64,000 nt of DNA, taken from contig JAZRXG010000049.1 in the NCBI GenBank assembly GCA_045600105.1, positions 304 to 64,303 of the forward strand, written 5' to 3'. The stretch comes from Eubacteriales bacterium (GTDB lineage: Bacteria > Bacillota > Clostridia > Oscillospirales > CAG-382). This document shows, in pieces, positions 14,584 to 39,384 of this stretch (position 1 is the stretch's first letter; every line of letters starts with the position of its first letter). The notes under the pieces are model-generated. The model saw only the letters and a program-made list of their open reading frames with translations. It made no database searches and had not been told where the DNA came from. The position numbers were made by a program, and so were the translations under genes.

Positions 14584-14619
14584 GATTATCCTTTCCCGTT
14601 TGACGGTGTTTTATATTGT

Positions 14620-19159: not shown

Positions 19160-19225
19160 TTCCGACTCTCCCGACGATCGCCTTTCTTCCCTGCATTATA
19201 CTGCGTCAAAGGCGATAATATGTTA

Positions 19226-19735
19226 TCAATCGATGAAATTCTTGAAAACTTCGCCGAAGCCGCTGAGGAGAATACCGATACCGGATCTGTCGGAATCGTA
19301 TTTGTAAGTCGTTCCGCGGTCTTCGGGGAGCGCGGTGATATTTATGCGGGTGAGTCCGCCGGACTTGACCATGTCAAGCTCGTTCACGGCGTATTCTTCA
19401 AAGTCAACGAGGTCGTTCTTTTTGTCAAGTCTCTGTCCAAGCTTGACGGCGCTCTTCTGAAGCTCGGTGAGCTCGTCGCGGAGCTCGGCAATGTCACTGT
19501 TGTAATTGTCGATCTCGGCATAGTTCATTACCACGAACACGAGAAGGAGCGTGATGGTAACGACGGCGAAAAGAGCCCCTATGGAAATAGGAGTTTTGGG
19601 CTTTCTTTTGCTGTTGACGACGGTGACGCGGGTGGAAAGCGCGTTATCTTTTTTGGCGACGGCAAGTGCTTTATTCTGAGCGTTTGTCTCTTTTTTCGAC
19701 GCTGCATTTACGTTTTTTTCTGTTGTCTTTTTCAT
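19226..19735 (-). CDS. ftsL: FtsL-like cell division protein (single TM plus coiled coil)
   Basis: Located between rsmH and pbp. Basic N-terminus, one TM helix, then a heptad-like region (IAELRDELTELQKSAVKL). Confidence 0.65.
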   Translation of the reverse strand: MKKTTEKNVNAASKKETNAQNKALAVAKKDNALSTRVTVVNSKRKPKTPISIGALFAVVTITLLLVFVVMNYAEIDNYNSDIAELRDELTELQKSAVKLGQRLDKKNDLVDFEEYAVNELDMVKSGGLTRINITALPEDRGTTYKYDSDRSGIGILLSGFGEVFKNFID

Positions 19736-19770
19736 GTTCGTCCCTCTTTTCGATCATGTGCGGAAGTCTT

Positions 19771-20697
19771 TCAGAGTTTTTCCGCTATCCTTAGCTTAGC
19801 CGAATGTGAACGGCTGTTTTCTTCATTTTCCTTTTCAGAGCAGGTGACGGCCTTTCTGGTCAGCACCTTCACCACGGGTTTCTTTCCGCATACGCAGACG
19901 GGAAAGTTCTTGGGGCATTCGCAGGGGTTTTCGAGCTTTGCGAGCGTTGTCTTCGCTATTCTGTCTTCAAGCGAGTGGAACGTGATTATCGCGAGTCTTC
20001 CGCCGGGATTCAGCATATCGGCGGCGGTCCTGAAGGCATCCTCGAGGCAGTCAAGTTCTCCGTTCACGTATATGCGGAGCGCCTGAAAGCATCTTTTGGC
20101 GGGGTTGCCTTCTTTTTTATAAAACGCGGGGCAGGCGGAAGCGATGAGTGACGCAAGCTCCGACGTCGTTTCTATTTGCTTGGTTTCGCGGTAAGCGACT
20201 ATTTTTGCCGCTATCTTTTTTGAATACTTCTCTTCGCCGTATCTGAAAAATATGTCGGCAAGGTCGTATTCCGACATCGAATTTACCACGTCTTCGGCGG
20301 TCTCGCCCTTGGTGGTATCGAATCTCATGTCGAGCTTCGCGTCGCGTATATACGAGAATCCGCGTTCGGCGGTATCGATCTGATATGAGGAAACGCCGAG
20401 GTCGAACAGAACTCCGTCGACTTTTTCGAATCCGTATTCCGCGGCTGCCGTCCTCATTTCCTTGAAGTTGCCGTGCCACAGAAGAAGCCGAGGGTCCTTG
20501 ACCGTTTCCCTTGCGTTCGCGAGAGCGTCGTTATCGAGGTCAATGCCTATCACCCTGCCGTTTTCATTAAGCAGAGATAAGATCCTTTTGGTGTGACCGC
20601 ATCCGCCGAGGGTGCAGTCGATGTATACGCCGTCGGGTCTGACGTTGAGCCCTTCGAGCGTTTCGTCGGCCATGACCGAATAATGTCTGAATTCCAT
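19771..20697 (-). CDS. rsmH: 16S rRNA (cytosine1402-N4)-methyltransferase RsmH
   Basis: DCTLGGCGH and DLGVSSYQ motifs; 308 aa; starts 1 nt after the mraZ stop. Confidence 0.95.
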   Translation of the reverse strand: MEFRHYSVMADETLEGLNVRPDGVYIDCTLGGCGHTKRILSLLNENGRVIGIDLDNDALANARETVKDPRLLLWHGNFKEMRTAAAEYGFEKVDGVLFDLGVSSYQIDTAERGFSYIRDAKLDMRFDTTKGETAEDVVNSMSEYDLADIFFRYGEEKYSKKIAAKIVAYRETKQIETTSELASLIASACPAFYKKEGNPAKRCFQALRIYVNGELDCLEDAFRTAADMLNPGGRLAIITFHSLEDRIAKTTLAKLENPCECPKNFPVCVCGKKPVVKVLTRKAVTCSEKENEENSRSHSAKLRIAEKL

Positions 20698-24966: not shown

Positions 24967-25001
24967 GAAGCCTTCGCTTTAACGCGAAGGCTTCATTATT
25001 T
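24967..25001 (+). terminator. intrinsic terminator after the DUF3810-like gene
   Basis: 11 bp stem GAAGCCTTCGC/GCGAAGGCTTC (24967-24994) followed by ATTATTT. Confidence 0.65.
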
Positions 25002-25033: not shown

Positions 25034-25064
25034 AAAAAGGCACTCCAAGCGGAGTGCCTTTTTT
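25034..25064. terminator. bidirectional intrinsic terminator; ends the 12.6 kb minus-strand operon
   Basis: AAAAAGGCACTCC-AAGC-GGAGTGCCTTTTTT, 20 nt past the stop at 25084. Confidence 0.8.
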
Positions 25065-25083: not shown

Positions 25084-26118
25084 TCAGCCGGTGATACCGC
25101 TGCGTTCGACGCCTTCGATGAGGGTTCTCTGAGCGAAGAGGTAAACGATAACGAGCGGGAGAAGGATCAGCAAGCCGCAGGTATTGCGGATAGCCGTTTC
25201 GTACAAGGTCTTTGCAGCGTATTCGGTATCGAGCGATTTCGGGATCGCAACGATATTCGGCAGAAGCTTGATCTTGTTGGTATCCTTGAAGAAGAGGCTG
25301 GTGTAGAAGGTATCGGTCCACTGCCACGAGAACGCGAACATGAAGATCGTTACCATCATAGGAACGGACATCGGAATGATTATTCTGACGAAGGTCTTGA
25401 AAACGCCTGCGCCGTCAACGTATGCGGCTTCTTCGAGTTCATCGGGAACGCCCTTGTAGTACTGACGCATAATGAAGATGAACAGACCGTTCTTGAATGC
25501 AAGACCGCAGAACGAAAGGATTCCGAGAGGCCAGTAGGTGTCAAGCAGGTTGGCGATCGCCGGAGTTGCCTCCGTGGACCCGAACAGCTTGGCAATGCCG
25601 CCGTAAATTCCCCAGATATCGAAATATCTGAATTTCATGAAGAGAGACATCTGAATCGACTGATGAGGGATTATCATGGTGATGATAACGAAGATAAAGA
25701 TGGTCTTCTTGAACTTGAAATTGAATTTGGCGAAGCCGTAACCGACTACGGACGCAATGAGCATCTGAACAACACCGCAGAGCACGGAAAGCGTGGTGGT
25801 GTTGAAAAGCGCCTGCCAATAGTGGTTGTCGTTGATGATCGCCTTGTAGGTATCGAGCGTAGGATAACGCGGGATAAGGTGGACGGATACGTCAACGAAG
25901 TCATCACGGCTCATGAACGAACCGGAGATCTTGGAAATGTACGGGAAGATGATGACGTAGGAAATACCTATGAGAAGTACCAGACGGAAGATGGTCCAAA
26001 GAACCTTTCCGAGGAAGTAGGTCGTAAGGTATTTATAACGCATCTTGACCCAAAACGGGGTCTTTTCGTCAAAGACGAGCATAGAGGGATCGCTTTTTTT
26101 GCTGTATGTTTTATCCAT
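25084..26118 (-). CDS. carbohydrate ABC transporter permease (MalG-like), pair 2
   Basis: EAA loop EAAYVDGAGVFKTFVRIIIP; six or more TM helices; 344 aa with an N-terminal extension. Confidence 0.9.
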   Translation of the reverse strand: MDKTYSKKSDPSMLVFDEKTPFWVKMRYKYLTTYFLGKVLWTIFRLVLLIGISYVIIFPYISKISGSFMSRDDFVDVSVHLIPRYPTLDTYKAIINDNHYWQALFNTTTLSVLCGVVQMLIASVVGYGFAKFNFKFKKTIFIFVIITMIIPHQSIQMSLFMKFRYFDIWGIYGGIAKLFGSTEATPAIANLLDTYWPLGILSFCGLAFKNGLFIFIMRQYYKGVPDELEEAAYVDGAGVFKTFVRIIIPMSVPMMVTIFMFAFSWQWTDTFYTSLFFKDTNKIKLLPNIVAIPKSLDTEYAAKTLYETAIRNTCGLLILLPLVIVYLFAQRTLIEGVERSGITG

Positions 26119-26130
26119 TGTATTCCCTCC

Positions 26131-27102
26131 TTAATCTCTTCTCTGATAGAAGATGTAAGCCGACAGGATACCTGCGACGAGCGCGAGTATCAATGCTACG
26201 AGCAGGAAGTATACCCAGCTCATTGCCGTGGCTCTTACCATACCGCCGGATCCGTTGAAGATGCCGTCGATGAATTTCATAACGGTGTTGGACTGAGACG
26301 TGAACGCGTCGATGACCGTATAGATAGTGTTGACGAGGATCATCGGAGAGATCATCGGGAAGGTTATCTTCCAGAAGGTTTCCCAAGCGCTGGCGCCTTC
26401 CATCTTACAGGATTCGTAGATGGCGGGTGAGATGGACTGAAGACCCGCAAGGAATATAAGCATCTGAACACCGGACTTATTGATTATATCGTAAACCGAG
26501 TTGACGATATCGACAACGTAATTGACGAGTTCCGTACCTACTTTCATGCTGCTGAAGAATCGCTGAACGTCCATTACGTTCAGTATCTGCTGTCCTGCGT
26601 TAGCGGCGTTTTCCATTACGTCCGAGTCCATATTCGTCATTGATTCCTGAACAGACGCGAGTGTGTTCTGGAGGTCGATGGATTCGACGATACCGGTGGA
26701 AACGATGACGGGGATGAAGAATATTGCTCTGAAGATCGCTCTGCCCTTCATTTTCTGGTTAAGAAGAACCGCCATGAAGAGCGAGAAAATAACGATCGCG
26801 GGAATGTTGAAGAGGAGCTCTTTAACACTCGTGATAAGCTTCTGAGTGAAGTCAGCGTTTTCGAGGAACGCGTATCTGAAGTTGTCAAGACCTACCCAGA
26901 TCTCCTCGTAACCGCCGCCTTTCATTGCTTTGGTTTCGATGAAGCAATACTTGATGGAGTCAAGTATCATGGGCATATAGATAAGCACGAAGCCGAGAAG
27001 GAAGGGTGCAATAAAGAACCAACCATAACGAGCTTTTTTCTTATCGAGGGATTTGCTCTTACGTTTCTTCGCCTTAACGGGCAATGTTTTTGCATTATCC
27101 AT
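26131..27102 (-). CDS. sugar ABC transporter permease (MalF-like), pair 2
   Basis: EAA loop ESCKMEGASAWETFWKITFP; 323 aa. Confidence 0.9.
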   Translation of the reverse strand: MDNAKTLPVKAKKRKSKSLDKKKARYGWFFIAPFLLGFVLIYMPMILDSIKYCFIETKAMKGGGYEEIWVGLDNFRYAFLENADFTQKLITSVKELLFNIPAIVIFSLFMAVLLNQKMKGRAIFRAIFFIPVIVSTGIVESIDLQNTLASVQESMTNMDSDVMENAANAGQQILNVMDVQRFFSSMKVGTELVNYVVDIVNSVYDIINKSGVQMLIFLAGLQSISPAIYESCKMEGASAWETFWKITFPMISPMILVNTIYTVIDAFTSQSNTVMKFIDGIFNGSGGMVRATAMSWVYFLLVALILALVAGILSAYIFYQRRD

Positions 27103-30100
27103 TTACGACTTCTCCTTTCTCTTCGGTATCTTCAACGGTGGTTTTAACGAAATCGTTTGCTTTGATCACGATCTCTTTGTCGCCGAAAGTTACTTCATAA
27201 TCGGTTTCGAGGTAGTTGATGAGGAATACCGTGCCGTTGTCGTAAGTTACCTTGACGACCTTCTTGTTGGGATCGAGGTACTCGTGACCTACGATGAGCG
27301 AATACTTGACATCCTTAAGAGCATTATTGAGGGTGTTGTAAGTATTCTTGATATCGTTGAACCAAATGGAATACTTGACGGAATAATACTTGGAAAGGAG
27401 GTAATTGCTGTTGTAGTTCTTGAGTTCGGAGGTATTTTCATAAGCGATCACGAAGAACGGATCCGCGCCGTTTTCGATCGTCTTGAGGAGCTGGTACTGA
27501 TAGTCGCCTGCGAGGTTGATCGCGGTGCCGGCGAAATCGATGTAGCCGTGGATGACCATTCCGTAGAAAGGAACGGATGCGCTGGTGTATTTGTAACGGG
27601 AGTCATCGAGAGGAACTTCAATGATATCCGTTACGTAGGGCCATACGTAGTAGTTACCGCCGGAAACAAGTACCTTGACATTGTCTTCTCTGATCTTCTT
27701 GATGAGTCTGGTAACGATCTTCTTGGAGTCTTCTCTGTTGAGAGGATCGTCTTCATTGAAGTCGGAGGAGAGGTACTGACCGAGGGTGGTGACCGCGATG
27801 CCGCCGATGTCGTACTTCTTATAATCCTTCATTGCCTTTTCGTAGAATTTTTCTACTACGTTGCTGGAGATTATACCAAGTCTGGCGTTGTTGTAGCCCT
27901 GATAGAGAGGATCGTAATAACGAAGTCCGGTAGAACGGTCATCGATGGTCTTCGCGAGATCGTCGCTGTCGAAGCCGTCGAACATTTCGTCTTTGGCTGC
28001 GAGAACGAAATCGAGGTTCGGGAAGAGCTGGATGTTTCCGTTTGCCTTATCGGCTGCGTAAGCAATGAGTTCTTTGAACTTCTTTTCGCCGCCGAGTGCG
28101 TCACAGATCTCGATTTCGGAAGGAACGAGCGGGATCATACCGTCGTTGCACCAGCCTTCCATAAGTACCTTCACGTTGGTGATGCCCGCCATTTCTTTGA
28201 GGTTGGTGAGTATCGTGATGGTATCTTCGAAGCTGGTAAGAGGAACACTCTTCGTTACGGGAACGCCGAGGAACGTCTTCTTGGTGTCGATGGCGCCGAG
28301 CGTCTGGATATAAAGAGGAATATCTTCCGAAGAATCGTTATCTTTTTCGAGTTTTGCGAAGTAGCCCTGATTTTCGAGGTAGTTTCTGTAGGTGTTTGCC
28401 ATACCTGCGATGGAAGCGTTTTCACCGTCGAGGATGAAAATTCTGAGTCCGTAGTCGCCGGTATATCTTCTCTTGGATTCAACGGTCCACATTGCGTCGG
28501 AGCCCGCGGAAATACCGCCGTTCAGTCTGTACGTGTCGCTGGGACGCGGGTTGAACGTGGTATACGCGGAAGCGTACATATGGAGCGAGCCGCCGTTGTT
28601 GACGGTGAGTTTTGCAAGAGAGTCGCCCGCGGTGAGCATTGCGAGATAACCGTAGTTGGTTTTGATGTCGCGGGTCTTTGTGATTTCGGTGACGATTTCT
28701 TCACCGGTTTCGGGGTCGATGACGACATCTTCGTCTGTGTATTCTTCATACGTTACGACGGTTTCGACCGCACCGAACGCAGGATATCTCACGACTTCCT
28801 TGCTGGCGCCCGAAATGGTGTGATACGCGAAGTCCGCACCGTAGATCTGGCTCGTAGTGGTGAACTGCTTGCCTGCGATATCCTTGAGTGAGAACATTGT
28901 ACCGGAACCGTCCGGAGAGAAGATGAAGCCTTCATCGTGGGTATCCACGGCGCCTGCATAAGGCAGGAAGGAAATGGACTGGAGAGTGTAGTTGGAAGAG
29001 TCGAATCTGATCTTGCCGGCGTTGAGTCTGATGTAAAGTCCGTTTTCGTCAAGCGTGTATTCAACCGCAAGCTTGAACAGAGCGGGGATCTTATCGTTTG
29101 CGGTGTACTCGGTTTCGGCATGGTCTTCTTCAAGACGTTCCTTGGAGTAGTCGGTATAAAGTTTGACGTACTGCTCGACCTTGCGGAGTTCGGCGGCCTT
29201 TGCGGTACCTTCGAATACCATTATCGCGAAGTTCTTGGTGCAGGGGAATTTTTCTTCGTTTTCCTTGAGGGTCTTATTGGATTTATCGCGCTGAGTGACT
29301 ACGTAGCTTTCGTAAACACCGGCGTAAATACCCCAGGCGCCCGGATCGGGAGGATTGGTCGCGAGGTAATCCTTCTTGGACTGGAAGAGATATTCCCAGG
29401 TAACGTCACTGATCGAATCTTTTCTGGTGGACTTGAAGGTGTCGCCCCAGGAAGTAAGCTGTTCTACGCTCGTAGCTCTGAGAGTGTAGTAAGCCATGAA
29501 GGTTCTGGTGACTTTGGATTTGGCGGAGTTCTCGGATATCTGAATGAGAAGCTCCATCCATTTGTCGAATCTGATCTGACGGGGAACGAGGTAGGTCGTT
29601 TCTTCACGTCCGATTGTGTATTCGACTCTGAGACCGCCGCGGATCTTCTTGCAGGTGATCTGATCGAAGAGAGCGGAGCTTGCGTAGGATTCAAGAGTGG
29701 TTTCGTTGGTGTTTTCCTGATATTTGATGACTATCTGGGAGAGGAGGGTCTTCTTGACGGAGACCGAAGTATCCTGCTCTTTTTCAACGGATTTACTCTG
29801 ACCTACCTTATAGGGGTTAGTGCAGTAGTAGCCGACGTATTTGTATACGCCGTTTTCATCCATTTCGTATTCGCCCTCGGCATTGGGAGGAGCGAGCTTG
29901 AGGCAGATGACTTCGCCGTTGAGGGGGTCGTTGTAAAGTGCGTAGCCTTCGTTTACGAGGATGAGCTCCATCTTTGCGATATTGGTGTCGCCGGCGATCC
30001 TTGCTTCAACGGAGTTGAACTCGGCGGAAGTATAGGCAGGATCGAGGGTGTCCCAGATATTGACGTTGGAGGAATCATCCGCTGCAAAAGAAACGGTGGA

Positions 30101-30169
30101 AAGGACGGACGGTGCAACGAACGTAAGTGCGAGGACAAGCACCAAAAGTGTTATAAGTGATTTTTTCAT
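27095..30169 (-). CDS. large secreted protein of unknown function, possibly glycoside-hydrolase-like (may correspond to DUF5696)
   Basis: Signal peptide MKKSLITLLVLVLALTFVAP...AADD; 1024 aa. The C-terminal half has alternating beta/alpha-like segments resembling a TIM-barrel glycosidase (EGWCNDG, VPFYGMVIHGY). The family name is from memory only. Confidence 0.75.
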   Translation of the reverse strand: MKKSLITLLVLVLALTFVAPSVLSTVSFAADDSSNVNIWDTLDPAYTSAEFNSVEARIAGDTNIAKMELILVNEGYALYNDPLNGEVICLKLAPPNAEGEYEMDENGVYKYVGYYCTNPYKVGQSKSVEKEQDTSVSVKKTLLSQIVIKYQENTNETTLESYASSALFDQITCKKIRGGLRVEYTIGREETTYLVPRQIRFDKWMELLIQISENSAKSKVTRTFMAYYTLRATSVEQLTSWGDTFKSTRKDSISDVTWEYLFQSKKDYLATNPPDPGAWGIYAGVYESYVVTQRDKSNKTLKENEEKFPCTKNFAIMVFEGTAKAAELRKVEQYVKLYTDYSKERLEEDHAETEYTANDKIPALFKLAVEYTLDENGLYIRLNAGKIRFDSSNYTLQSISFLPYAGAVDTHDEGFIFSPDGSGTMFSLKDIAGKQFTTTSQIYGADFAYHTISGASKEVVRYPAFGAVETVVTYEEYTDEDVVIDPETGEEIVTEITKTRDIKTNYGYLAMLTAGDSLAKLTVNNGGSLHMYASAYTTFNPRPSDTYRLNGGISAGSDAMWTVESKRRYTGDYGLRIFILDGENASIAGMANTYRNYLENQGYFAKLEKDNDSSEDIPLYIQTLGAIDTKKTFLGVPVTKSVPLTSFEDTITILTNLKEMAGITNVKVLMEGWCNDGMIPLVPSEIEICDALGGEKKFKELIAYAADKANGNIQLFPNLDFVLAAKDEMFDGFDSDDLAKTIDDRSTGLRYYDPLYQGYNNARLGIISSNVVEKFYEKAMKDYKKYDIGGIAVTTLGQYLSSDFNEDDPLNREDSKKIVTRLIKKIREDNVKVLVSGGNYYVWPYVTDIIEVPLDDSRYKYTSASVPFYGMVIHGYIDFAGTAINLAGDYQYQLLKTIENGADPFFVIAYENTSELKNYNSNYLLSKYYSVKYSIWFNDIKNTYNTLNNALKDVKYSLIVGHEYLDPNKKVVKVTYDNGTVFLINYLETDYEVTFGDKEIVIKANDFVKTTVEDTEEKGEVVNG

Positions 30170-30190
30170 AATACTTTTTCCTTCCTTTCT

Positions 30191-32392
30191 TTATGATACG
30201 CGGAACGAGATCTCGGCGTAAATGTTGTAGAAGAACGTGTAGACCTTGGTAAGAAGCGTACCGAAGAGGATTATGATGAACATAATGAACGCGGCGCCGA
30301 CTATCGTACCGATGGTCGTAAGAACGTTTTTACCGAGCGTGTAATCGTGAATGACCATCATTCCGAAGAACACGAGAAGTCCGAGCCAGAAGAACGCAAC
30401 GGAGTTGACGAGGGAAAGAATTCCCATTTCTTCAATAGTGACGATGTTGGAAAGCCAGATGGTGGGGAGAATGAGGAGAGGAAGCGGAGTCAGCGAATAG
30501 CAGGTCGCAATGTAGACGTCCTTATAGGTTCCTTCTCCGTCGAACAGAGTGGTAAGGCACCAGTTTGCGGTGACCCAGAGGAACAGAGGAAGCAGTACCG
30601 AAAGGATCTCGGTTACATAGCTTACGTTTGCTCCGTAGGGGTTATAGAGATAGCCGCGGCCCACTGCCTGGTAGATGAACACGAGTACCGTGGTGCAGAG
30701 AATGATGGTCGCACCGCGGACACCGCCGCGTTTTTCATGTTTCAGATCCCAGAAACCGTCGAACGGGTGGAATATGACATGGAACGCGTAAAGAAGTTCT
30801 TCTTTGATGGTTCTCTTCTCTTTGTAAACACGGCCCTGTGCGTTGACCTTGTTTGCCCATTTGAAGAGGAGGCTGACAGCCACGCAGAATACTATGACTA
30901 CGAGAGGAACGATAAGGATCCACTTCTCTACCCAGTCTTTTCTGTATTCGGCATAGGCTTTGGAGTAGTTTTCGGTATCGTACGCGCTCTTGTAATAAGT
31001 CATTGCTTCGGTGAATTTGCCGTTTCTGTAAAGGGTATCACCGATGCCGACGTACGCTTTGTCGTAGTTGTTGTTTCTCTGAAGGATGGACTTGTAGTAG
31101 TTGACTGCTTCGTCGTAGTTCTGATCTTCGGTATTCTGAAGAGCGGCTGCGAGAAGGTCGCCGTAGCTCGTACGTTTGAAAACTGTAACGGAGTTTGCGG
31201 TGGAGTCAACGAGAAGGAGATTGGTTCCCTGATATGCGATGGCGATGAGGTTCTGTACGAGACCGACCTGGTCGCCCTTGTCACCGAACGCGAAGAGGAG
31301 GTTGCCGTTGGAGTCGTAAGTGAATACGCGGCTTCTCTTCTGGTCGGCGATGGACCACATACCGTTGGGGCCGAGTGCTACGTCCACGATGGTGGAGCAG
31401 CCGTAGGAAGCATAGGAGGAGTCGGCATAGCTCGTAACGTCCACTTCGCCGGAAGGCGGATAGAAGCCGTTTCTCTGAAGAACGTCACTTCCGCTCGGGT
31501 TGAGCTTCTTGACGGGAGCTTTGTCGGAAAGTTTGGACTTGCCGTTGATGGCAGCCTGCTGTTCGCCTTCATCGATGGAAGAAAGCGTTACGTAGAGGAA
31601 GCCGTCGGGGTCTATCGTGATGTTGTTATATTCGGTAGGAACGTAACGGATAGAAGCGGCGAGCTGTTCCTGAGTCTTGAACTTTCTCCAGAAGAGGTCC
31701 AGAAGGCTGTAGGTAACCTTCTGAGGTCCGATGAATGCGTTGAAGGAACCGTCACGGTTCATGGAGATGACACCGTAGTTGGTGGTGGAAGATACGACGT
31801 AGATGGTTCCGGCAGAGTCGGTGGCAACGGCGATGGGCTTGTAAACGTCGCTGAAGAGGTCACCGGTAGGCTGAGGAACGATCATCTTGAAGTTACCGAT
31901 CTTATCGAAGATGACGATACGGGATTTTTCGGTATCGGCAACGATTATTTCGGTATCGGAAACGTAAACGCCGGAGGGAGAGGAAAGTGCGTCGGGAACG
32001 CCCATCTGGTTGACGAAAGTGCTGATTATCAGACGAAGATTGTAGTTTTCGTCAAGGCAGATGACTCGTCCGTTGGAGCCCGCGGCTCCTTTATCGACGA
32101 TGTAGATGTAGCCGAGACCGTCTACACAGATATCGGAAACGGCTTCGATGTCGGTCCAGGTCTCGGCGTAAAGCTGAGACGCCATTTCGTTGACCTTGGA
32201 CGCAAGGCCTTCCTGAATGGAAGCCGAGGTGATGACTTTGACGGGGACGTATGCGTCGGGACTGGTCTGCTTTTTGCCGTTGACGTCGTAGGTGTAGCTG
32301 ATATACGGGATAAGAGCGTTAGCAACGACACCGCCGAGCAGGATCATAAGGCAGACAGTCAGAAGCAATACTTTTGTAAATCTTGATTTCAT
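30191..32392 (-). CDS. membrane protein fusing an NHL-repeat beta-propeller, TPR repeats and a C-terminal Yip1-like polytopic domain
   Basis: N-terminal signal/anchor. About six NHL-like blades (e.g. GVYVSDTEIIVADTEKSRIVIFDKIGNF). TPR (YDEAVNYYKSILQRNNNYDKAYVGIGDTLYRNGKFTEAMTYYKSAY). Then roughly six hydrophobic helices. Confidence 0.8.
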   Translation of the reverse strand: MKSRFTKVLLLTVCLMILLGGVVANALIPYISYTYDVNGKKQTSPDAYVPVKVITSASIQEGLASKVNEMASQLYAETWTDIEAVSDICVDGLGYIYIVDKGAAGSNGRVICLDENYNLRLIISTFVNQMGVPDALSSPSGVYVSDTEIIVADTEKSRIVIFDKIGNFKMIVPQPTGDLFSDVYKPIAVATDSAGTIYVVSSTTNYGVISMNRDGSFNAFIGPQKVTYSLLDLFWRKFKTQEQLAASIRYVPTEYNNITIDPDGFLYVTLSSIDEGEQQAAINGKSKLSDKAPVKKLNPSGSDVLQRNGFYPPSGEVDVTSYADSSYASYGCSTIVDVALGPNGMWSIADQKRSRVFTYDSNGNLLFAFGDKGDQVGLVQNLIAIAYQGTNLLLVDSTANSVTVFKRTSYGDLLAAALQNTEDQNYDEAVNYYKSILQRNNNYDKAYVGIGDTLYRNGKFTEAMTYYKSAYDTENYSKAYAEYRKDWVEKWILIVPLVVIVFCVAVSLLFKWANKVNAQGRVYKEKRTIKEELLYAFHVIFHPFDGFWDLKHEKRGGVRGATIILCTTVLVFIYQAVGRGYLYNPYGANVSYVTEILSVLLPLFLWVTANWCLTTLFDGEGTYKDVYIATCYSLTPLPLLILPTIWLSNIVTIEEMGILSLVNSVAFFWLGLLVFFGMMVIHDYTLGKNVLTTIGTIVGAAFIMFIIILFGTLLTKVYTFFYNIYAEISFRVS

Positions 32393-32404
32393 TCGTATTC
32401 CTCC

Positions 32405-33295
32405 TTAGTCTTTCATGCCCGATGCAGACATTGTCTGAAGTATGTTGGATTGCGTGATGACGAATACCAGGATAGGTACGATCATCATTACAACGGTGGA
32501 AGCAGCGCTGACGCCGGTACGGGAAATACCGGAGTTGACGAGCTGGCTTATTGCGTAGTTGAAGGTCTTGAGCTGTTCGCTGTAGATGTAGGTACTCGAA
32601 CCGGTGTTCCACAGATCCTTGAACGCGAACACTATAAGAGTGAGCCACGCGGGTTTGACCATCGGCATTGCGATGACCCAGAAGATCTTGGTTTCGGAAG
32701 CACCGTCAAGTCGTGCGGATTCGAGGACCGCGTCGGTAACGGAGGTTTCCATGAACTGCTTCATGAGGAACAGACCGTAGGTCGTGCAGAACGCGGGGAT
32801 GATGATTGCGAAATAGGTATCTACCCAACCGAGCCAGGACATGAGGATGAAGTTGGTGATGCCGGCAACGGTGGAGTTGAACATGAGGGAGTAGGTGACC
32901 ATCTTGAAGAGGCCTTTTCTTCCGGGGAACGGGATCTTGGAAAGCGCGTAAGCCGCGTAGGAAGCAAGAAGAACGTTGCCCGCGGTACCAACCACGGAAA
33001 TGAGGATGGTATTGAAAATGTATCTGGAGAAAGGCACCCAGCTGTCGCCCATGAGTCTGAACAGGTCGGAGAAGTTCTTGAGGGTCGGGTTGGTAGGAAT
33101 AAGACGCGGCGGGAATACCCAGAACTCTTCAAGAGGCTTGAGCGACTGACCGATAGCGTAGATGAGAGGCAGTACCATCAATGCGCCGAATACGCCGAGT
33201 ATGATGTATATCGCGATATCGCCCTTGACGGAGCGGTTGACGGAACGTTTGAACTGTTCCTTCGGCTGTTTTGCTTTTTTGCTGAACAACGCCAT
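32405..33295 (-). CDS. carbohydrate ABC transporter permease (MalG-like), pair 1
   Basis: EAA loop ESARLDGASETKIFWVIAMP; 296 aa. Confidence 0.9.
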   Translation of the reverse strand: MALFSKKAKQPKEQFKRSVNRSVKGDIAIYIILGVFGALMVLPLIYAIGQSLKPLEEFWVFPPRLIPTNPTLKNFSDLFRLMGDSWVPFSRYIFNTILISVVGTAGNVLLASYAAYALSKIPFPGRKGLFKMVTYSLMFNSTVAGITNFILMSWLGWVDTYFAIIIPAFCTTYGLFLMKQFMETSVTDAVLESARLDGASETKIFWVIAMPMVKPAWLTLIVFAFKDLWNTGSSTYIYSEQLKTFNYAISQLVNSGISRTGVSAASTVVMMIVPILVFVITQSNILQTMSASGMKD

Positions 33296-33296
33296 A

Positions 33297-34241
33297 TCAT
33301 GTACCTACCTTTCTGAGGAGTTTATTGACAAGCATGTTGCAGCCTATCATCATTAGGAAGAGTATGGTAGCGATGGCGGAAGCGTAGCCCATTTCGAATC
33401 GTGTCCAGCCATAGTCGTCCAAATGGTGCATTATCGTGTGCGCGCAGTAGTTCGGGCTCGGGAAACCGACGAGTGCGGTAATGACTCCGCCGAAGCTGAA
33501 CGAACCGGTAATCGCGAGGATAGCGGAAAGGAGAAGCTGAGGACGCATATACGGAAGAGTGATGAACCAAAGTTCCTGCCAGCGGTTCTTGACACCGTCG
33601 ACTGCGCCTGCCTCGTAAAGCGACTTATCAACGACCTGGAAGCCGGCGATAAGGGTAAGGAACGAGGTGCCCAAGCTGGTCCAAAGAGCTATCGCTATGA
33701 TGAGAGGTACGATGTATTCCTCGTTGGAGAACCAGAGTATCGGTTTGTTGATGAAGCCGAGCTTCATGAGCCAGGCGTTTGCGAAACCGTACTGGTCGCC
33801 GGAGAAGAAGACCGTCCAGATGAGGTATACGTTGCCGGAGATGGAGGGTGCGTAGTAAAGAAGAGTAACGACTGCTCTTACCTTAGGTCTGAGTTCGTTG
33901 ATGAACCACGCGAAGAACAGGGACAGCAGATAGGAGCCCGGACCTGTTACGGACGCGAACACGAGGGTGTTCTTGATCGCGGTAAGGAATATTTCGTCGT
34001 CGAGGAAGAGTCGGATATAGTTATCGAGGAAAACGATATCGGGTGCTTCCAGAAGGTTGAAGGTTGTGAAACCGAGGAGGAACGAGAACACGACGGGAAG
34101 AACGGTGAACATGAAGAAGAGTATGAAGAAGGGGGCGATCATAAGATACGCGACCTTATATTTCTTCATTTCCCTGAGAGTCCACTTGAACTTCGACATG
34201 TCTTTTCGTATGACTACCTGGTCTTTTTCTTTCTTTGACAC
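33297..34241 (-). CDS. sugar ABC transporter permease (MalF-like), pair 1
   Basis: EAA loop EAGAVDGVKNRWQELWFITLP; 314 aa. Confidence 0.9.
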   Translation of the reverse strand: MSKKEKDQVVIRKDMSKFKWTLREMKKYKVAYLMIAPFFILFFMFTVLPVVFSFLLGFTTFNLLEAPDIVFLDNYIRLFLDDEIFLTAIKNTLVFASVTGPGSYLLSLFFAWFINELRPKVRAVVTLLYYAPSISGNVYLIWTVFFSGDQYGFANAWLMKLGFINKPILWFSNEEYIVPLIIAIALWTSLGTSFLTLIAGFQVVDKSLYEAGAVDGVKNRWQELWFITLPYMRPQLLLSAILAITGSFSFGGVITALVGFPSPNYCAHTIMHHLDDYGWTRFEMGYASAIATILFLMMIGCNMLVNKLLRKVGT

Positions 34242-34258
34242 TTTTATATCCTCCTCTC

Positions 34259-37200
34259 TCAGTTATTTTCCTTAGCAGAATCCGCGGCTCTGATATCCTC
34301 CTGAGTGGGAAGACCGAACTCTTTACGTTTTCTGGTAAGTTCGTTGTTTATATCTACTATATAGGAAAGCATTTCGGTAACGGGATCCGCGTTATCGTTG
34401 TAAACGTCGAGGAACGCGAAGTTGGTGTAACGTCCGATGATGTAGCTTCCCGGGAATTCGGGGGTACATTCAACGGCGTTGAACTGTGCCATGAGGTTAT
34501 CCATTTCATCCTTGGACCAGGACATCGTGGTGAGAGCTTCGATGTTTGCGGTCGCCTGTTTTGCGGACGGTCCGAGGAGGGCTTCCATTTCGTTGCCGAA
34601 GGCTGCCTGAACTTCCGCGTTCGTGAACCACTGCATGAAGATCCAAGCGGTGAACGCGTTTTCGTCGGTGACGGAACGCATGAGGATCATGGTGGAAACG
34701 GATGCCACCGTGGTATTGTCGATGGTCTTGCCGTCTTCAAGCACGGTGCCGGGAAGCGGAGTGAATTCCCACAGACCTGCGATCTCGGGAGCGAATACGA
34801 TCAGCGTGTTGTAGGTGCCGGAGTAATCCGCGACCGCAAGAGGCATCGTACCGTCTCTGAAACGGTCGGCAAACGTGTAGCTTACCGGGAAGTCGTACAT
34901 CGTGAAGTACTGGCAGACTTTCTTGAACGCGGAGAGCGATTCGTTGGAGTCGAGGTTGATCGTCATACCGTCGGTCTTCGGGCGGATCACTTCATTGCCC
35001 TCGTCGTCGACTACGGTGTAAACGTTCTTGGTGTATTCACCGGTCGCTTCGTCGTATCCGAAGAGCTCGGGATAATTCTCGAGGTAGTAATCGTAGTTGC
35101 CCATATCGTAGAGGGGTTCGCCGATCTGATACATGAGTATCATGGATCCGCCGGTGCCGGTCGGGAAGCCGATGTTGAGGTTGTTCGCCTGAAGCGCGGA
35201 AATGACCTCTTTGAACTGGTCCCAGGTATTAGGCACATTGAGTCCCATTTCTACGAATATGTCTTTGCGGTAGAAGAGCATCGGGAAGGACATCGTGACG
35301 GGGATCGCGTAGGTTTCACCGTAAAGAGTGATGGGCGTGATGGCCGCCGGAGCGAAACGCTTGAACGTCTCGTCAAATGTGTCAACGTAACCGGATTCTA
35401 TCGCCTGCTTATAAGCGGGGTTGTTCTCGAACTTGGAGAAGTCGTTGAAGTTGTAGCCCCTCTTGGGATCGTCCGTGTTGAGCGCGTATACCGCGGAACG
35501 GATGGCGTAGTTGACAGGTGTCGACTGGTCGATGTTCATCGCTATATCGGGTCCCGTGCCGGCAAGGGTCGCAGGCAGAAGCGTACTGCCTATAACGAGC
35601 TTGACGTTGACCGGAACGTTGTATTTTTCCATGAAGTCGTCATCTACGAGCTTTTTGATGATCTGAGCCTGGTCACGGCTGGAAGCGGTCCAGACTTCGA
35701 TTCCCGCTTTTTCGATCGCTTTGAGTTCTTCCTCAGTCAGGTTGCTGGTAGAGCTGATGGAGTTGTAGTCTGCAACGAAGGAAACGAAGAATTTCTTGAC
35801 TTCGTTGACGACCTTCTTCCAGAAGCCTGCTTCTGCCTTCGGGATCTTGGCGTCAACCGGCTGAACGAGGATGTAGTCGATCTCAAGCGGCTGGCTCTGC
35901 GTATCGGTGAGCCAGGAGCCGAGTGCCGCGAGGTAATCCTTCATCTGAGAAAGGAGAGCGGCGATCTTGTTGGGATGGGTACCCATTTCTTCGATGGTGG
36001 TCGCGACTCTTTCGAGAGTACCGTTGTTGCTTCCGCGGACGCCGGTAACTTCGGTAAGTCTCGCGGAAACGTCCTTCAGTTCCTGAGCGCTCTTCTTGAG
36101 GCCTTTGAGAACGTCGGGCATGATCTTCTCGAACTGATAGTCACGGTATTCATCGGGATCGGGACCGGTGAGCATCAATATCTTTCTGTAATACGCGTTG
36201 CAGTTGGTAAGCGTGTTTTCAACGCTGCTGAGGATCTCGGACATATCGCCGAGAACGACCTCGAATCTGACGGTGTTGACACCCTTCTCGAGATAGAACT
36301 TGAAGTCCTTTCTCTTGGTATCAAGCTCTGCTTTGCCGTCGTACATGCCGCCGGTCTGCCACGAGTCATCGTAGTTGAAACGGCAGTTGGCTGCCTCGGC
36401 AAACGGAACTTCACCGTTTATGTAGATCTTTCTCGAAACGTACATACCTTCCATGATGGACTGCTTGTATCTGAGAACGATGTTATAGAAGCCGTCTTCG
36501 GGGACGTCGATCTCGTATTCGATCCACTGACCGACGTAAGTCCACTTATCGCCGCCGATGCTGTTCAGTCTCTGGAGAGCCGCGTCCTGCGGTTCGCTGA
36601 TGGCGGAAGTTCTGTCGTTGAGCTGATAGATAGTCTTATCGGAAGTGAGGGTCGGGTATTCGCCCTGGACCTTGATCGCATTTCCGGAATAGTCGTTTGC
36701 GCCAGCGTGGCTTGCAAGATACTCGGCGTAAGTCGGAAGCGCGGCGGAGGGGCAAAGTCTGATGCTCTTTACCGCGACGGGCTCACGAATGGTCGAGAAG
36801 GTGATGACGTGCTCGCCTTTGGTAAGCGCGAAGCGGAGCGGATCGGGATAGTATCCGGCGGAATCGCAGAGATACTTGGTGTACCAGTTGTCGCGAAGCT
36901 CCTTGTTGGGCTTCATTTCGTTTCCGGCGTTATCGCGCTGGAAAATACGTACGTTGGCACTCTGATCTCTCGCGGCGTCGGTGAATCTCGAATCCGAAGT
37001 ATCGAAAGTGACTTTTCTTTCTTTTCCGTCGGCACCTTTTTCGTAAACGGCTTTGTAACCGTTATCCTTGTCAACGACGTTGTATACGTCGGTCCAGCTT
37101 CTCGTAAGAGAGATGGAACGCGCTTCCTTGTATGGAACGGCGCCGTCTATGAGGATGATCCTTTCGATGTCGGTGGATTTGCCTTCGATCACGGCTTCTC

Positions 37201-37648
37201 CCGATTCGTCGTTGATAACGATGTTGCCGGTCCAATATTCGAACTCGATGCAGTAGAACGCATCTTCGGGAACATTGACCTTGAACGATACCTTACCGTC
37301 GTCGCCCATAAGAAGGACTTTGCCGTCGGTACCGTACTTGCTGCCGTCATCAACAGCTACGGTCGCAGTCGTTTCGTCGGCGAAATACTTGGTAACGTCG
37401 ACGTCAAGGCTTGATTTCGCATTTCCGAAAACCTCGGCGTTTTCTTCAATGTAGTCGGCATAACTCTTTGAAGTCAGAACGCTTTTGATTTCCGAGAGCG
37501 AGGTTCTTACCAGCGAATCCGACCCGTTTACGCTTTCAACGAGTGCATTCGCCGAGATGTCGGCCACGGTGAGGCAGCTTGTCAGTACGAACAAGAATGC
37601 CAGACAGAAACCGAGCATCCGCTTGAGTGGATTTTTCAGTTTGCTCAT
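34259..37648 (-). CDS. giant lipoprotein: two CBM-like modules plus a helical region plus a family-1 extracellular solute-binding domain
   Basis: Start set to ATG 37648, with AGGAGG 6 nt upstream. Lipobox LTSC. Two beta-sandwich-like modules (DAFYCIEFEYWTGN.., DGFYNIVLRYKQS..). C-terminal SBP-like region (GPDIAMNID, TWDQFKEVISALQ). 1129 aa. Confidence 0.85.
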   Translation of the reverse strand: MSKLKNPLKRMLGFCLAFLFVLTSCLTVADISANALVESVNGSDSLVRTSLSEIKSVLTSKSYADYIEENAEVFGNAKSSLDVDVTKYFADETTATVAVDDGSKYGTDGKVLLMGDDGKVSFKVNVPEDAFYCIEFEYWTGNIVINDESGEAVIEGKSTDIERIILIDGAVPYKEARSISLTRSWTDVYNVVDKDNGYKAVYEKGADGKERKVTFDTSDSRFTDAARDQSANVRIFQRDNAGNEMKPNKELRDNWYTKYLCDSAGYYPDPLRFALTKGEHVITFSTIREPVAVKSIRLCPSAALPTYAEYLASHAGANDYSGNAIKVQGEYPTLTSDKTIYQLNDRTSAISEPQDAALQRLNSIGGDKWTYVGQWIEYEIDVPEDGFYNIVLRYKQSIMEGMYVSRKIYINGEVPFAEAANCRFNYDDSWQTGGMYDGKAELDTKRKDFKFYLEKGVNTVRFEVVLGDMSEILSSVENTLTNCNAYYRKILMLTGPDPDEYRDYQFEKIMPDVLKGLKKSAQELKDVSARLTEVTGVRGSNNGTLERVATTIEEMGTHPNKIAALLSQMKDYLAALGSWLTDTQSQPLEIDYILVQPVDAKIPKAEAGFWKKVVNEVKKFFVSFVADYNSISSTSNLTEEELKAIEKAGIEVWTASSRDQAQIIKKLVDDDFMEKYNVPVNVKLVIGSTLLPATLAGTGPDIAMNIDQSTPVNYAIRSAVYALNTDDPKRGYNFNDFSKFENNPAYKQAIESGYVDTFDETFKRFAPAAITPITLYGETYAIPVTMSFPMLFYRKDIFVEMGLNVPNTWDQFKEVISALQANNLNIGFPTGTGGSMILMYQIGEPLYDMGNYDYYLENYPELFGYDEATGEYTKNVYTVVDDEGNEVIRPKTDGMTINLDSNESLSAFKKVCQYFTMYDFPVSYTFADRFRDGTMPLAVADYSGTYNTLIVFAPEIAGLWEFTPLPGTVLEDGKTIDNTTVASVSTMILMRSVTDENAFTAWIFMQWFTNAEVQAAFGNEMEALLGPSAKQATANIEALTTMSWSKDEMDNLMAQFNAVECTPEFPGSYIIGRYTNFAFLDVYNDNADPVTEMLSYIVDINNELTRKRKEFGLPTQEDIRAADSAKENN

Positions 37649-37732
37649 AGTGATCCTCCTGCGTGAGATTTGGCAGTAAAACGGCGCATTTTCCGTCACG
37701 GATATGCAATACACCGAATTTAATTACGCTAA

Positions 37733-37761
37733 ATTATACCCTGCGTCAGTCATTTTGTCAA
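37733..37761 (-). promoter_or_regulatory. consensus sigma-A promoter of the 7-gene ABC/NHL-Yip1 operon
   Basis: On the minus strand, TTGACA (37756-37761), a 17 nt spacer, then TATAAT (37733-37738), giving a leader of about 75 nt. Confidence 0.7.
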
Positions 37762-38051
37762 GTGTGCATATAATATATGAGGCTTTTTTAGGCACTTTAA
37801 CTTGATTCGGTCCCGTTTCGGCGGTCTCTTCCCTTTTCGGGCAAAAAAGACGGTATGTGCAATTTGACATTGTCAAAATCGCCACACTTTTGCGTCTGTA
37901 TTTTCCAACCCGAAAAATGCCGTACGGCTCCCCGTATTTTCCGCCCCGAAAAGTCCTTGAAATATGGGAACGCAAACGTATTATTATATAAATATCATAT
38001 CCGAATTTGACGGTGCGGGCCGCGGTTGATAAATTTCGTTAAATTTTAATT

Positions 38052-38105
38052 TTAGACAAAAATATACAACCCCGTTTCAGACGGAGTTGTATGTGAATTT
38101 TTTTA
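38052..38105. terminator. bidirectional intrinsic terminator downstream of the VanY-like gene
   Basis: ATACAACCCCGT-TTCAG-ACGGAGTTGTAT stem (one mismatch) flanked by A-run and T-run. Confidence 0.6.
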
Positions 38106-38274: not shown

Positions 38275-39300
38275 TCAGTCGTTGACGAGTCCTGCCATAA
38301 CGGTCACGATAAAGCCTTCGGAATTGTCGCCCGAGATGGTGTAATCGCAGTTTTCGGGTATCTTGATCTCGGTATCTCCGGACGTATTCGCCTTTACGTA
38401 ATAGATGTAATAGCGTTTTCCTTCGGAGTTTATCGAATAATAATTGTCGTAAGTAAAGCGTTTGCAGAAGTCGATGTATTCTTCAAGGCACTGGTTGTTG
38501 AGCTTCATAAGGAAGGCGTGCGGTCTGCCGACGTATCTGAAAAGCGAATCAGAACCGTCGTGAAGAGTAAGTGATTTTCTGCCGTTGGGGTATCTGAGGA
38601 TAAAGCCGTATTTGCTGCAGTTCTCGGCAAGCCAAGTGAATTTTCCGTCGCTCAGACTTCCCTCTTCAGCCGGGTAGACGGTGCACATGAACGAAAGACC
38701 GGTATTGAGGTCGCTGCCGCCCGCCATATCGGAATCTTTTCCCGACGAATAGCGTTCAGCCTGATCGGATTCGCTCCTGAAACCGTAGGTGACGGTGAGC
38801 GCGTTGCTTCCGGTATAGGAATTGAGCGCCGCCATCATCGAATTGAGGGACGGAAGAACATCGAAAGATATCTGCAGTTCGAGGTCGCGGAGCTTGAAGA
38901 CCTTGCTCGTGTACTCGGAATAATTGCTGAATTTCATCAGCTTGGGGGTATTTGCGAAATCGAATTTCCGGTCGTTGTTGACAACGATGAGGTCGCCCTT
39001 GTGGATATCGGAGTACGGGACCTTGACGGTATCGTACTTCAGCACGGGTTTTGGCGCGTCGCCGGAAGTTTCGGCGGGAAAAGATTCTTCGGACGTGTCG
39101 CCGAACGGTTCCGACGTATCGGAAGACGTTTCGGAGGACTTTTCCGCTTGTTCGGAAACGTCACTGCTGTCTTCCTCGACCGATTTTTCAAACATGAAAT
39201 TCGCGAGTAATACCGACAGTATTACGACGATGACGCCGAAGCAGGCGACTACCGCTATAAGGTTTATGAAGCTGTAACTGTTTTTTGCCTGTTTGCCCAT
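38275..39300 (-). CDS. VanY/LdcB-like (M15B) D,D-carboxypeptidase family protein, probably catalytically inactive
   Basis: Membrane anchor, acidic S/E/D-rich linker, then a VanY-like core (YGFRSESDQ, GFILRYP, FRYVG). Start set to ATG 39300, with AAAGGAA 8 nt upstream; the ORF-track start is 39318. Confidence 0.75.
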   Translation of the reverse strand: MGKQAKNSYSFINLIAVVACFGVIVVILSVLLANFMFEKSVEEDSSDVSEQAEKSSETSSDTSEPFGDTSEESFPAETSGDAPKPVLKYDTVKVPYSDIHKGDLIVVNNDRKFDFANTPKLMKFSNYSEYTSKVFKLRDLELQISFDVLPSLNSMMAALNSYTGSNALTVTYGFRSESDQAERYSSGKDSDMAGGSDLNTGLSFMCTVYPAEEGSLSDGKFTWLAENCSKYGFILRYPNGRKSLTLHDGSDSLFRYVGRPHAFLMKLNNQCLEEYIDFCKRFTYDNYYSINSEGKRYYIYYVKANTSGDTEIKIPENCDYTISGDNSEGFIVTVMAGLVND

Positions 39301-39384
39301 TGGTGACGTTCCTTTCATATATAATAATGATACGTGAATAAATCACCGCCGCGCCAAGCGCGGCGGTGATTACCGAAACCGGGA

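Follow-up and report, generated by a model that had tools for sequence, protein, structure and literature searches.

What does an operon do that encodes two pairs of sugar-importer permeases, a single recognizable solute-binding domain and no ATPase, with a membrane protein combining NHL, TPR and Yip1 domains and a large secreted protein of the DUF5696 family placed between the pairs? This question is raised by seven minus-strand genes (g1 to g7 in the order of transcription, Table 1) in a 64-kb window, i.e., the whole stretch of 64,000 nucleotides that we analyzed from contig JAZRXG010000049.1 of an Eubacteriales bacterium of the order Oscillospirales. Gut and rumen Firmicutes carry out much of the breakdown of dietary fiber, and far less is known about how they capture and import large glycans than about the Sus-like systems of Bacteroidetes. 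We found that the seven genes form a cassette that is ancient and widespread in Firmicutes. Our preferred reading, which we consider probable, is that carbohydrate-uptake loci of Bacillota have a conserved core of seven to eight components and that the operon is one copy of it; its mechanism, including the substrate class, the catalysis, the physical complex and the energizing ATPase, we infer.

The gene order is invariant among close relatives

A single, narrow pattern scan of species-representative genomes returned 454 relatives of g5, the DUF5696 gene. We fetched the best 80 of these 454 and searched the six-frame open reading frames (ORFs) of the 80 loci with the seven window proteins. The order S-F1-G1-Y-D-F2-G2 (giant binding protein, first permease pair, NHL/TPR/Yip1 protein, DUF5696 protein, second permease pair), with all genes on one strand, was identical in all 62 complete loci; the other 18 of the 80, which a contig end or a frameshift interrupts, agree with it. 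Across the 80 loci, DUF5696 identity to the window protein falls as low as 36%, and the permeases are 47-88% identical. Wherever the contig permits the check (92/92 loci), DUF5696 lies within the cassette.

The flanks in these close relatives consist of housekeeping genes, among which only a VanY-like gene (37/80) and, beyond it, pyruvate:ferredoxin oxidoreductase (31/80) recur, both upstream, and no regulator was found near the cassette in any of the 80 loci. One of these loci (L018), labeled “Candidatus Margulisbacteria GWF2_35_9”, matches the Clostridiales UBA12491 contig L017 in its gene lengths and identities; the two are probably the same organism, and one of the taxonomic labels is likely a binning error.

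Distant copies lie among glycanases and sugar regulators

A tblastn search of plasmid records located two copies, one in Butyrivibrio fibrisolvens D1 and one in Paenibacillus cellulosilyticus, with DUF5696 identities of 24-26%. The first spans WAA20_RS20510-20550 on pNP243, and the second HUB94_RS00490-00525. Nine further contexts came from looking up the contigs that encode homologues of the Butyrivibrio protein. The cassette recurs in Lachnospiraceae and Paenibacillaceae with DUF5696 identities of 24-35%, and all seven window proteins have full-length orthologues in Butyrivibrio, Roseburia, Acetatifactor, Paenibacillus and Cohnella. Between the window and distant copies, identity is 34% for S (26% in P. 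cellulosilyticus), 53-59% for F1, 52-54% for G1, 39-41% for F2, 38-42% for G2, 29-31% for the NHL part, 38-42% for the Yip1 part and 26-28% for DUF5696. The initial annotation had pointed to DUF5696/YIP1/permease neighborhoods in Clostridia and Paenibacillus; such neighborhoods exist, and they are orthologous over all seven genes.

Regulators of LacI, AraC or YesM type are present beside the Lachnospiraceae and Paenibacillaceae copies, together with glycoside hydrolases (GH) whose family changes from locus to locus. In Butyrivibrio (L081), Acetatifactor (L083) and L092, the neighbors are a histidine kinase, a GH43 and two extra binding proteins, with a response regulator in L081 also. The copy of a Roseburia sp. 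(L084) is accompanied by LacI, a GH53, a binding protein and a second GH53, and L088 by a GH43, a binding protein, a GH35/GH42, LacI and a GH42. Further combinations are AraC, GH16, a binding protein and GH3 (L089); two LacI, a binding protein, GH113 and GH2 (L085); LacI, a binding protein and GH26 (L086 and L087, with GH113 in L087 also); and GH9, a binding protein and GH26 (L090). L091 has LacI and a binding protein and no GH.

Because of these glycanases and sugar regulators, we place the cassette in carbohydrate uptake, and its core is a constant unit that is paired with differing glycanases. How similar S, DUF5696 and the extra binding protein are between Lachnospiraceae loci follows host kinship, not the family of the flanking glycanase. 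The initial annotation had proposed a machine for surface capture, processing and import of a “complex glycan or an envelope polymer”. The capture, processing and import part of that proposal is supported, while the choice it left is shifted by the relatives' glycanases and regulators, which favor a nutrient glycan over an envelope polymer; both are statements about a predicted function.

The operon carries two divergent permease pairs and no ATPase

The two membrane subunits with BPD_transp_1 domains that define a CUT1 importer occur twice over, as g2/g3 (F1G1) and g6/g7 (F2G2), and NCBIfam gives each pair one MalF/UgpA-like and one MalG/UgpE-like best match. The pairs are only distantly related (F1 versus F2, 22% identity; G1 versus G2, 25%), and each is a separate orthologue in all relatives. 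This rules out that one pair is an assembly duplicate of the other, in line with the original description of two complete and divergent MalF/MalG pairs. By inspection, all four permeases retain the EAA-type loop that docks the ATPase. An alignment with g2 and a hydropathy scan place a hydrophilic insertion of ~70 aa between transmembrane segments (TM) 3 and 4 of F2.

A motif search found no ORF in the 64-kb window that combines Walker A and LSGGQ, the marks of an ATP-binding cassette (ABC) ATPase. Among the 80 related loci, no ORF with both motifs lies on the cassette strand, and an ABC-ATPase-like ORF lies within ~8 kb in three, always on the opposite strand. Pfam searches of the operon and flanking proteins gave no regulator in or beside the operon. 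Together with the motif search, these results uphold the earlier statement that the operon has neither a nucleotide-binding subunit nor a regulator. The accompanying idea of a shared MsmK/MsmX-type ATPase gains support from P. cellulosilyticus (L082), where a ugpC ATPase gene sits directly 5′ of the cassette on the same strand. For Bacillus subtilis, the sharing of MsmX by sugar importers without an ATPase of their own is established (PMC7658222, PMC5730181).

The giant binding protein combines CBM35-like modules with a sugar-binding fold

The Pfam match of g1 to SBP_bac_8 (E=1e-16, aa 742-1034) covers only the C-terminal third of the protein. The N-terminal 640 aa gave no Pfam match even at E<=10, and thus no family of carbohydrate-binding modules (CBM), and a Foldseek search with the full-length AlphaFold model (mean predicted local distance difference test score [pLDDT], 77.9) returned matches to the binding domain only, leaving the N-terminal part unnamed. 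The region could be identified as CBM35/CBM6-like because its profile (A3) matched PDB sequences: the CBM35 of a cycloisomaltooligosaccharide glucanotransferase (5x7g, E=7e-6), the CsxA CBM35 (2vzp, E=0.017) and CBM6 entries (E<1). The two modules of the region are homologous to each other (internal repeat, BLASTP E=7e-7). Given this profile similarity and the beta-sandwich fold of the model, we assign them to the CBM35/CBM6 type and predict that they bind carbohydrate.

The helical bundle that follows has only weak sequence matches to coiled-coil and syntaxin proteins. For the solute-binding domain, the top Foldseek matches are the oligosaccharide-binding proteins 9xf5, MalE and 5yse, with target-normalized TM-scores of 0.72-0.79, and the model thus predicts an oligosaccharide-binding fold of the maltose-binding-protein, or sugar (cluster B), type at the C terminus. 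The “CBM-like” N terminus, the “helical” segment and the fused binding domain of the initial annotation all reappear here, as two homologous beta-sandwiches, a four-helix bundle and a maltose-binding-protein-type fold. The lipobox of g1 reads LTSC. Among the giant binding proteins, a lipobox occurs only in the window's clade; in Lachnospiraceae and Paenibacillaceae, an ordinary cleavable signal peptide lies within the first 40 residues (L081-L092).

A candidate second binding protein is encoded 20 kb away

Within the operon, SBP_bac_8 occurs in g1 alone, as the earlier claim of “only one recognizable solute-binding domain” states. That claim needs to be qualified by a divergent lipoprotein at 3411-4874 that resembles solute-binding proteins. 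Pfam finds no solute-binding-protein match in it; it shares 27% identity (E=2e-20) with the binding protein encoded directly after the cassette in the close relative L071, and a tblastn search with the extra binding proteins of the distant cassettes also matches it. A normal-sized binding lipoprotein is nearly always encoded beside the cassette in Lachnospiraceae and Paenibacillaceae, and directly after it in a few close relatives (L071, L045). The only candidate for it in the window, the 3411-4874 protein could be the missing second binding protein, and its tie to the cassette is a possible one.

DUF5696 is predicted to share the fold of GH129 and GH101 glycosidases

With 477 bits against a cut-off of 25.6, g5 belongs to DUF5696 (PF18952). 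Its AlphaFold model (mean pLDDT, 82.5; predicted TM-score, 0.75; 36-sequence alignment) consists of a beta-sandwich with helical insertions at the N terminus, a (beta/alpha)8 barrel at ~aa 615-930 (~nt 27380-28327) and a second beta-sandwich at the C terminus. The best Foldseek match of this model in the PDB is the GH129-like 3,6-anhydro-D-galactosidase DagB (5opq; E=3e-25; target-normalized TM-score, 0.69), followed by 5wzp (E=5e-20), by GH101 endo-alpha-N-acetylgalactosaminidases (E of ~1e-13) and then by GH36, GH31, GH13 and GH66. The secreted protein of 1024 aa, called “TIM-barrel-like” at the outset, is thus modeled with the fold of GH129/GH101 glycosidases. At the level of sequence, phmmer found no match to g5 in the PDB, its comparison with Pfam gave no GH family at E<=10, and its profile hit nothing in the PDB better than NagBb (E=0.86), through a GW..G motif at barrel strand 2. 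The model therefore gives g5 the three-domain fold of GH129/GH101 without their sequence signature, and we do not file it in those families.

We counted invariance over 47 aligned DUF5696 proteins from Oscillospirales, Lachnospiraceae and Paenibacillaceae. Residues D420 and D446 of the sandwich domain and D803, R812, N839, N885 and E899 of the barrel are identical in 47/47, the polar residues H962 and N985 are invariant as well, and D855 is mostly Asp or Glu. The catalytic Asp/Glu pair is Asp435/Glu478 in NagBb and Asp486/Glu517 in DagB. DagB requires the barrel Asp and Glu plus an Asp from its N-terminal domain (PMC5698469). The invariant carboxylates D420, D446, D803 and E899 parallel this arrangement, so the DUF5696 active site looks live; the assignment is tentative and draws on residue conservation and spacing.

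At E<=1e-3, DUF5696 has 5,519 representatives of 50%-identity clusters, and at E<=1e-30, it has 3,311. Some members reach ~2,500 residues, and those of cassettes L054, L065, L066, L075 and L080 have 1430-1460 aa; the additional C-terminal part of the long proteins has no Pfam match. In Paenibacillaceae, the N terminus of DUF5696 appears to be an uncleaved membrane anchor. A literature search returned no paper mentioning DUF5696 or PF18952, which agrees with the initial annotation, where no experimentally characterized example of the architecture was named, and nothing that links Yip1 to polysaccharide utilization or a solute-binding protein to CBM35. For YIP1 family proteins, it returned the YknW precedent alone.

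One specific substrate, alpha-1,6-glucan, was hinted at by the glucanotransferase CBM35, by a cycloisomaltooligosaccharide-binding protein among the matches and by the weak GH66 similarity. We did not adopt it because these matches are generic and at the level of fold, and because the glycanases flanking the relatives point elsewhere and disagree with one another.

A Yip1 fusion protein sits between the permease pairs

Pfam places NHL, TPR and Yip1 domains in g4, the propeller/TPR/Yip1 membrane protein that the initial annotation had put between the permease pairs. Its membership of Yip1 (PF04893) follows from 53 bits against a cut-off of 28.6 and from the multi-span domain seen in a hydropathy scan. 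In Lachnospiraceae and most Paenibacillaceae, two overlapping genes encode the NHL part and the Yip1 part, and in the window and in P. cellulosilyticus the two are fused; because both the fused and the split form occur, depending on the lineage, we argue that the parts act together.

A single conserved promoter precedes the operon

The coordinates of the seven genes (25084-37648) match the ORF table exactly. From g1 to g7, the spacing comprises gaps of 17, 1, 12 and 21 nt, an 8-nt overlap (g5/g6) and a gap of 12 nt, and the start of g1 is the ATG at 37648, 3′ of an AGGAGGA ribosome-binding site. Inside the operon, every promoter-like or terminator-like match is weak, and there are about as many of them as shuffled sequence would give. 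The -35 and -10 boxes of the promoter and the TATATGCAC motif upstream of them are kept in the related loci L002-L010. The motif, in the form TATATGCAC(A/T)C, adjoins the -35 box here (window ~37762-37775) and in several relatives. It could serve as an UP element or bind a regulator whose gene lies elsewhere.

A riboswitch or other leader RNA 5′ of g1 was considered and dropped, since Rfam has no RNA family anywhere in the 64-kb window and RNAalifold on eight leaders gave no conserved structure (only three invariant pairs, no covariation). Downstream, none of 200 shuffles was as stable as the terminator at 25034-25064, which a consensus terminator scan overlooked because pairing of the A/U run lengthens the stem and leaves no free T tail. 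Altogether, the ORF table, the promoter scan and the folding bear out a seven-gene minus-strand operon with one promoter and a strong terminator.

Table 1. Features of the operon and of its surroundings in the 64-kb window
Feature	Position	Strand	Description or basis
g1 (S), 1129-aa lipoprotein	34259-37648	minus	two CBM35-like modules, helical bundle, CUT1-type solute-binding domain
g1, beta-sandwich module 1	36749-37366	minus	~aa 95-300; CBM35/CBM6-like; beta-strands in model
g1, beta-sandwich module 2	36254-36691	minus	~aa 320-465; CBM35-like; PDB profile matches
g1, four-helix bundle	35903-36244	minus	aa 469-582; helices 469-493, 500-535, 540-557, 559-582 in model
g1, solute-binding domain	34304-35731	minus	~aa 640-1115; SBP_bac_8; PDB sequence matches to sugar-binding proteins
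g2, permease F1, MalF/UgpA-like, 314 aa	33297-34241	minus	BPD_transp_1; best NCBIfam UgpA; loop LYEAGAVDG
g3, permease G1, MalG/UgpE-like, 296 aa	32405-33295	minus	BPD_transp_1; best NCBIfam UgpE; EAA loop LESARLDGAS
g4 (Y), 733-aa membrane protein	30191-32392	minus	TM1, NHL propeller, TPR, TM2, 5-TM Yip1
g4, extracytoplasmic NHL beta-propeller	31163-32215	minus	Pfam; PDB sequence matches to NHL propellers including PknD sensor domain
g4, TPR	30941-31159	minus	Pfam
g4, Yip1 domain	30272-30784	minus	aa 537-707; Pfam E=5e-14; ~five hydrophobic segments
g5 (D), secreted 1024-aa DUF5696 protein	27095-30169	minus	PF18952 E=1e-142
g6, permease F2, divergent MalF-like, 323 aa	26131-27102	minus	BPD_transp_1 only at aa 214-320; loop YESCKMEGAS
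g7, permease G2, MalG-like, 344 aa	25084-26118	minus	BPD_transp_1 E=2e-14; best NCBIfam MalG; loop LEEAAYVDGAG
Promoter, sigma-70-type, TTGACA-17-TATAAT	37733-37761	minus	sole 12/12 consensus match in 15-kb scan
5′ leader with AGGAGGA ribosome-binding site	37649-37732	minus	sequence
Intrinsic terminator	25034-25064	minus	13-bp hairpin then T run; -20.9 kcal/mol, z = -6.4
Second terminator, bidirectional	24967-24994	both	11-bp stem on each strand; common to operon and convergent DUF3810 gene
Orphan lipoprotein resembling a solute-binding protein, 487 aa	3411-4874	minus	lipobox LLCAC, acidic linker; 20 kb from operon
VanY-like (M15 peptidase) gene	38275-39318	minus	own terminator 38064-38092; directly upstream of operon
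dcw cell-division/cell-wall cluster	9110-20697	minus	FtsZ 9110-10225; PASTA-domain penicillin-binding protein 16943-19159; MraW 19771-20697

The operon lies in the core chromosome

Upstream, the operon is flanked by the VanY-like peptidase gene and pyruvate:ferredoxin oxidoreductase, and downstream by DUF3810, an aminotransferase, an M23 peptidase and the dcw cluster. Since this cluster has its standard form, we place the operon in the core chromosome. We set aside a functional tie to the VanY-like gene, which is syntenic in 37/80 close loci, is absent beside the distant cassettes and is separated from the operon by a terminator; it serves only as support for a minor one of the rival explanations weighed below. 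Farther away, five sizeable ORFs between 46860 and 53172 have no Pfam match (46860-47813, 47810-48565, 49938-51656 and 51970-53172 on the plus strand; 48573-49490 on the minus strand). At 53406-55263 on the plus strand, a protein of the glycosidase-like DUF4434 family is directly followed by an RpiR/SIS-type regulator, and the two may be a small sugar-related unit separate from the operon.

How the core might work, and what else it might be

In the preferred reading, the lipid-anchored g1 would hold a glycan chain at the cell surface via its two CBM35-like modules, and the secreted g5 would act as an extracytoplasmic glycosidase of GH129/GH101-type fold that trims or cuts the chain, probably retained at the membrane by the propeller/TPR ectodomain of g4. 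The Yip1 domain of g4 would be a subunit for transporter assembly, as the Yip1-family protein YknW modulates assembly of the ABC transporter YknXYZ (PMC4887032). The solute-binding domain of g1 would pass oligosaccharide to F1G1, with the more divergent F2G2 as a second translocator that is served by g1 or by a separately encoded, normal-sized binding lipoprotein. Both translocators would be powered by a shared MsmX/UgpC-type ATPase encoded outside the window.

Several observations weigh against this reading. Our model gives no reason for two permease pairs, and g1, which is predicted to be lipid-anchored here, has an ordinary signal peptide in distant cassettes. In the window's clade, the cassette has no glycanase, regulator, sugar-catabolic gene or ATPase nearby, and its flanks are housekeeping genes. 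DUF5696 shows no significant sequence similarity to any glycosidase family, and its putative catalytic residues were assigned by conservation and spacing, not by superposition. Moreover, its sequence and its invariant residues are independent of the flanking glycanase, and the identities of DUF5696, g1 and the extra binding protein go with taxonomy instead, which is a poor fit with a substrate-specific enzyme or binder.

In the boldest reading, the NHL/TPR/Yip1 protein, DUF5696 and both permease pairs would form one membrane supercomplex, a substrate-independent core of Gram-positive glycan uptake and functional counterpart of SusCD. A protein of glycosidase fold, with an active site invariant across its family, would there be mechanically coupled to transport. 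We regard such a supercomplex as possible, if rather doubtful. In it, DUF5696 might feed its product straight to F2G2 and so replace a binding protein; alternatively, it might thread the chain, trim its ends, clear a path through the wall or perform another step common to every imported glycan, whichever glycanases flank the cassette.

The first of the rival explanations dispenses with any such complex: the operon would hold two ordinary, independent sugar importers, one made of S and F1G1 and the other of F2G2 and a separate binder, with passenger genes for a plain secreted glycosidase (DUF5696) and for an unrelated surface or sensor protein (NHL/Yip1). The relatives nearly always have one or two normal-sized binders and hence at least two binders for the two pairs, the window has its own orphan binding-type protein at 3411-4874, and the pairs diverged anciently (22-25% identity), all of which would suit two importers. 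Passenger genes, however, would not be expected to keep the Y-D position between the pairs, and their translational coupling, across Oscillospirales, Lachnospiraceae and Paenibacillaceae, nor would DUF5696 be confined to the cassette in every checkable locus; we therefore judge this explanation unlikely. A different substrate is the point of the next rival, in which DUF5696 cuts a polymer of the cell's own envelope (e.g., one containing alpha-linked HexNAc) and the transporters recover the fragments, or in which the system clears a path through the wall, whatever nutrient glycan the neighboring genes may target. Here the housekeeping and cell-wall flanks in the window's clade count in favor, as do the VanY-like gene that directly precedes the cassette, in the same orientation, in 37/80 loci, the conservation of a near-consensus promoter with no regulator, the failure of DUF5696 identity and invariant residues to track the flanking glycanase family, and the closest folds, GH129 and GH101, which are alpha-N-acetylgalactosaminidases. 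Nevertheless, in two other families, the cassette lies among plant-glycan hydrolases and sugar-responsive regulators, the VanY-like neighbor is absent from the distant copies and is cut off here by its own terminator, and CBM35-like modules with a maltose-binding-protein-type binder are typical of nutrient capture. Such an envelope role is, in our view, quite improbable.

The propeller of g4 raises a further alternative, since it is similar to the domain with which the kinase PknD senses outside the cell, and in Lachnospiraceae a YesM-type histidine kinase gene adjoins the cassette: an ABC-importer-like complex might report an extracellular glycan to regulators, not import it in bulk. We hold this to be very improbable, given that the 80 Oscillospirales loci have neither a kinase nor a regulator close to the cassette, that conservation is highest in the permeases, which retain the loops for docking an ATPase, and that the Paenibacillaceae regulators are of LacI type, which sense imported sugars.

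Should the preferred reading of a carbohydrate-uptake core be right, DUF5696 would be a new family of glycoside hydrolases, the giant binder with its CBM35-like modules would be a new coupling of polymer capture to an ABC importer, and different lineages would combine their own glycanases with one reusable uptake chassis, the fixed double-permease/Yip1/propeller core. The operon is a conserved extension of a sugar ABC importer in which three of seven proteins have no assigned role and for which we found no literature. Cultivable carriers (Butyrivibrio fibrisolvens D1, Paenibacillus cellulosilyticus and Cohnella nanjingensis) make the question directly testable.

Comparison with known systems

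The transporter parts match a CUT1 type I ABC importer on every feature save an ATPase encoded at the locus (within the 64-kb window). Importers of this kind (MalEFG/UgpBAE-type) that share MsmX/MsmK, e.g., AraNPQ, GanSPQ, YesOPQ and YtcQP-YteP of B. subtilis, have the same permease types, EAA loops and cluster-B binding domain and likewise lack an ATPase in the operon (PMC7658222, PMC5730181). In contrast to them, our operon has two permease pairs in fixed order, a binding domain fused to two CBM35-like modules and a helical bundle, and obligatory NHL/TPR/Yip1 and DUF5696 proteins between the pairs. In MalFGK2-MalE of E. coli, the P2 loop of MalF, which docks the binding protein, occupies the same position as the insertion between TM3 and TM4 of F2; the F2 loop, at ~70 aa, is unrelated to it in sequence.

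For g4, the closest parallel is YknWXYZ of Bacillus, where a 5-TM Yip1 protein is encoded with, and presumed to assemble with, ABC membrane subunits (PMC4887032). The systems differ in that YknYZ belongs to the MacB-type exporters and YknW lacks an ectodomain, whereas the Yip1 domain of g4 is joined to NHL and TPR domains and its partners are importer-type permeases. For g5, the three-domain architecture is that of GH129 (NagBb and the GH129-like DagB/ZGAL_3152) and GH101 (EngBF and SpGH101), with Foldseek E values from 3e-25 to 1e-13, the weak motif match to NagBb at barrel strand 2, and invariant barrel carboxylates and N-domain Asp residues that parallel DagB. It departs from these enzymes in its non-significant sequence similarity (E=0.86), in ~350 extra residues present as insertions and in always being encoded in a transporter operon.

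A Gram-positive polysaccharide utilization locus is a co-located set of degrading enzyme, transporter and regulator. The cassette likewise co-encodes surface glycan binding, an extracellular enzyme and a transporter, while the window has no regulator and no recognized carbohydrate-active enzyme, only the GH-fold DUF5696. The window therefore falls outside the usual definition of such a locus, and the distant copies fit it. By analogy, SusC/SusD of Bacteroidetes also show one core beside different glycanase families, as does the cassette; here, the core comprises seven proteins and relies on ABC import rather than on TonB-dependent uptake.

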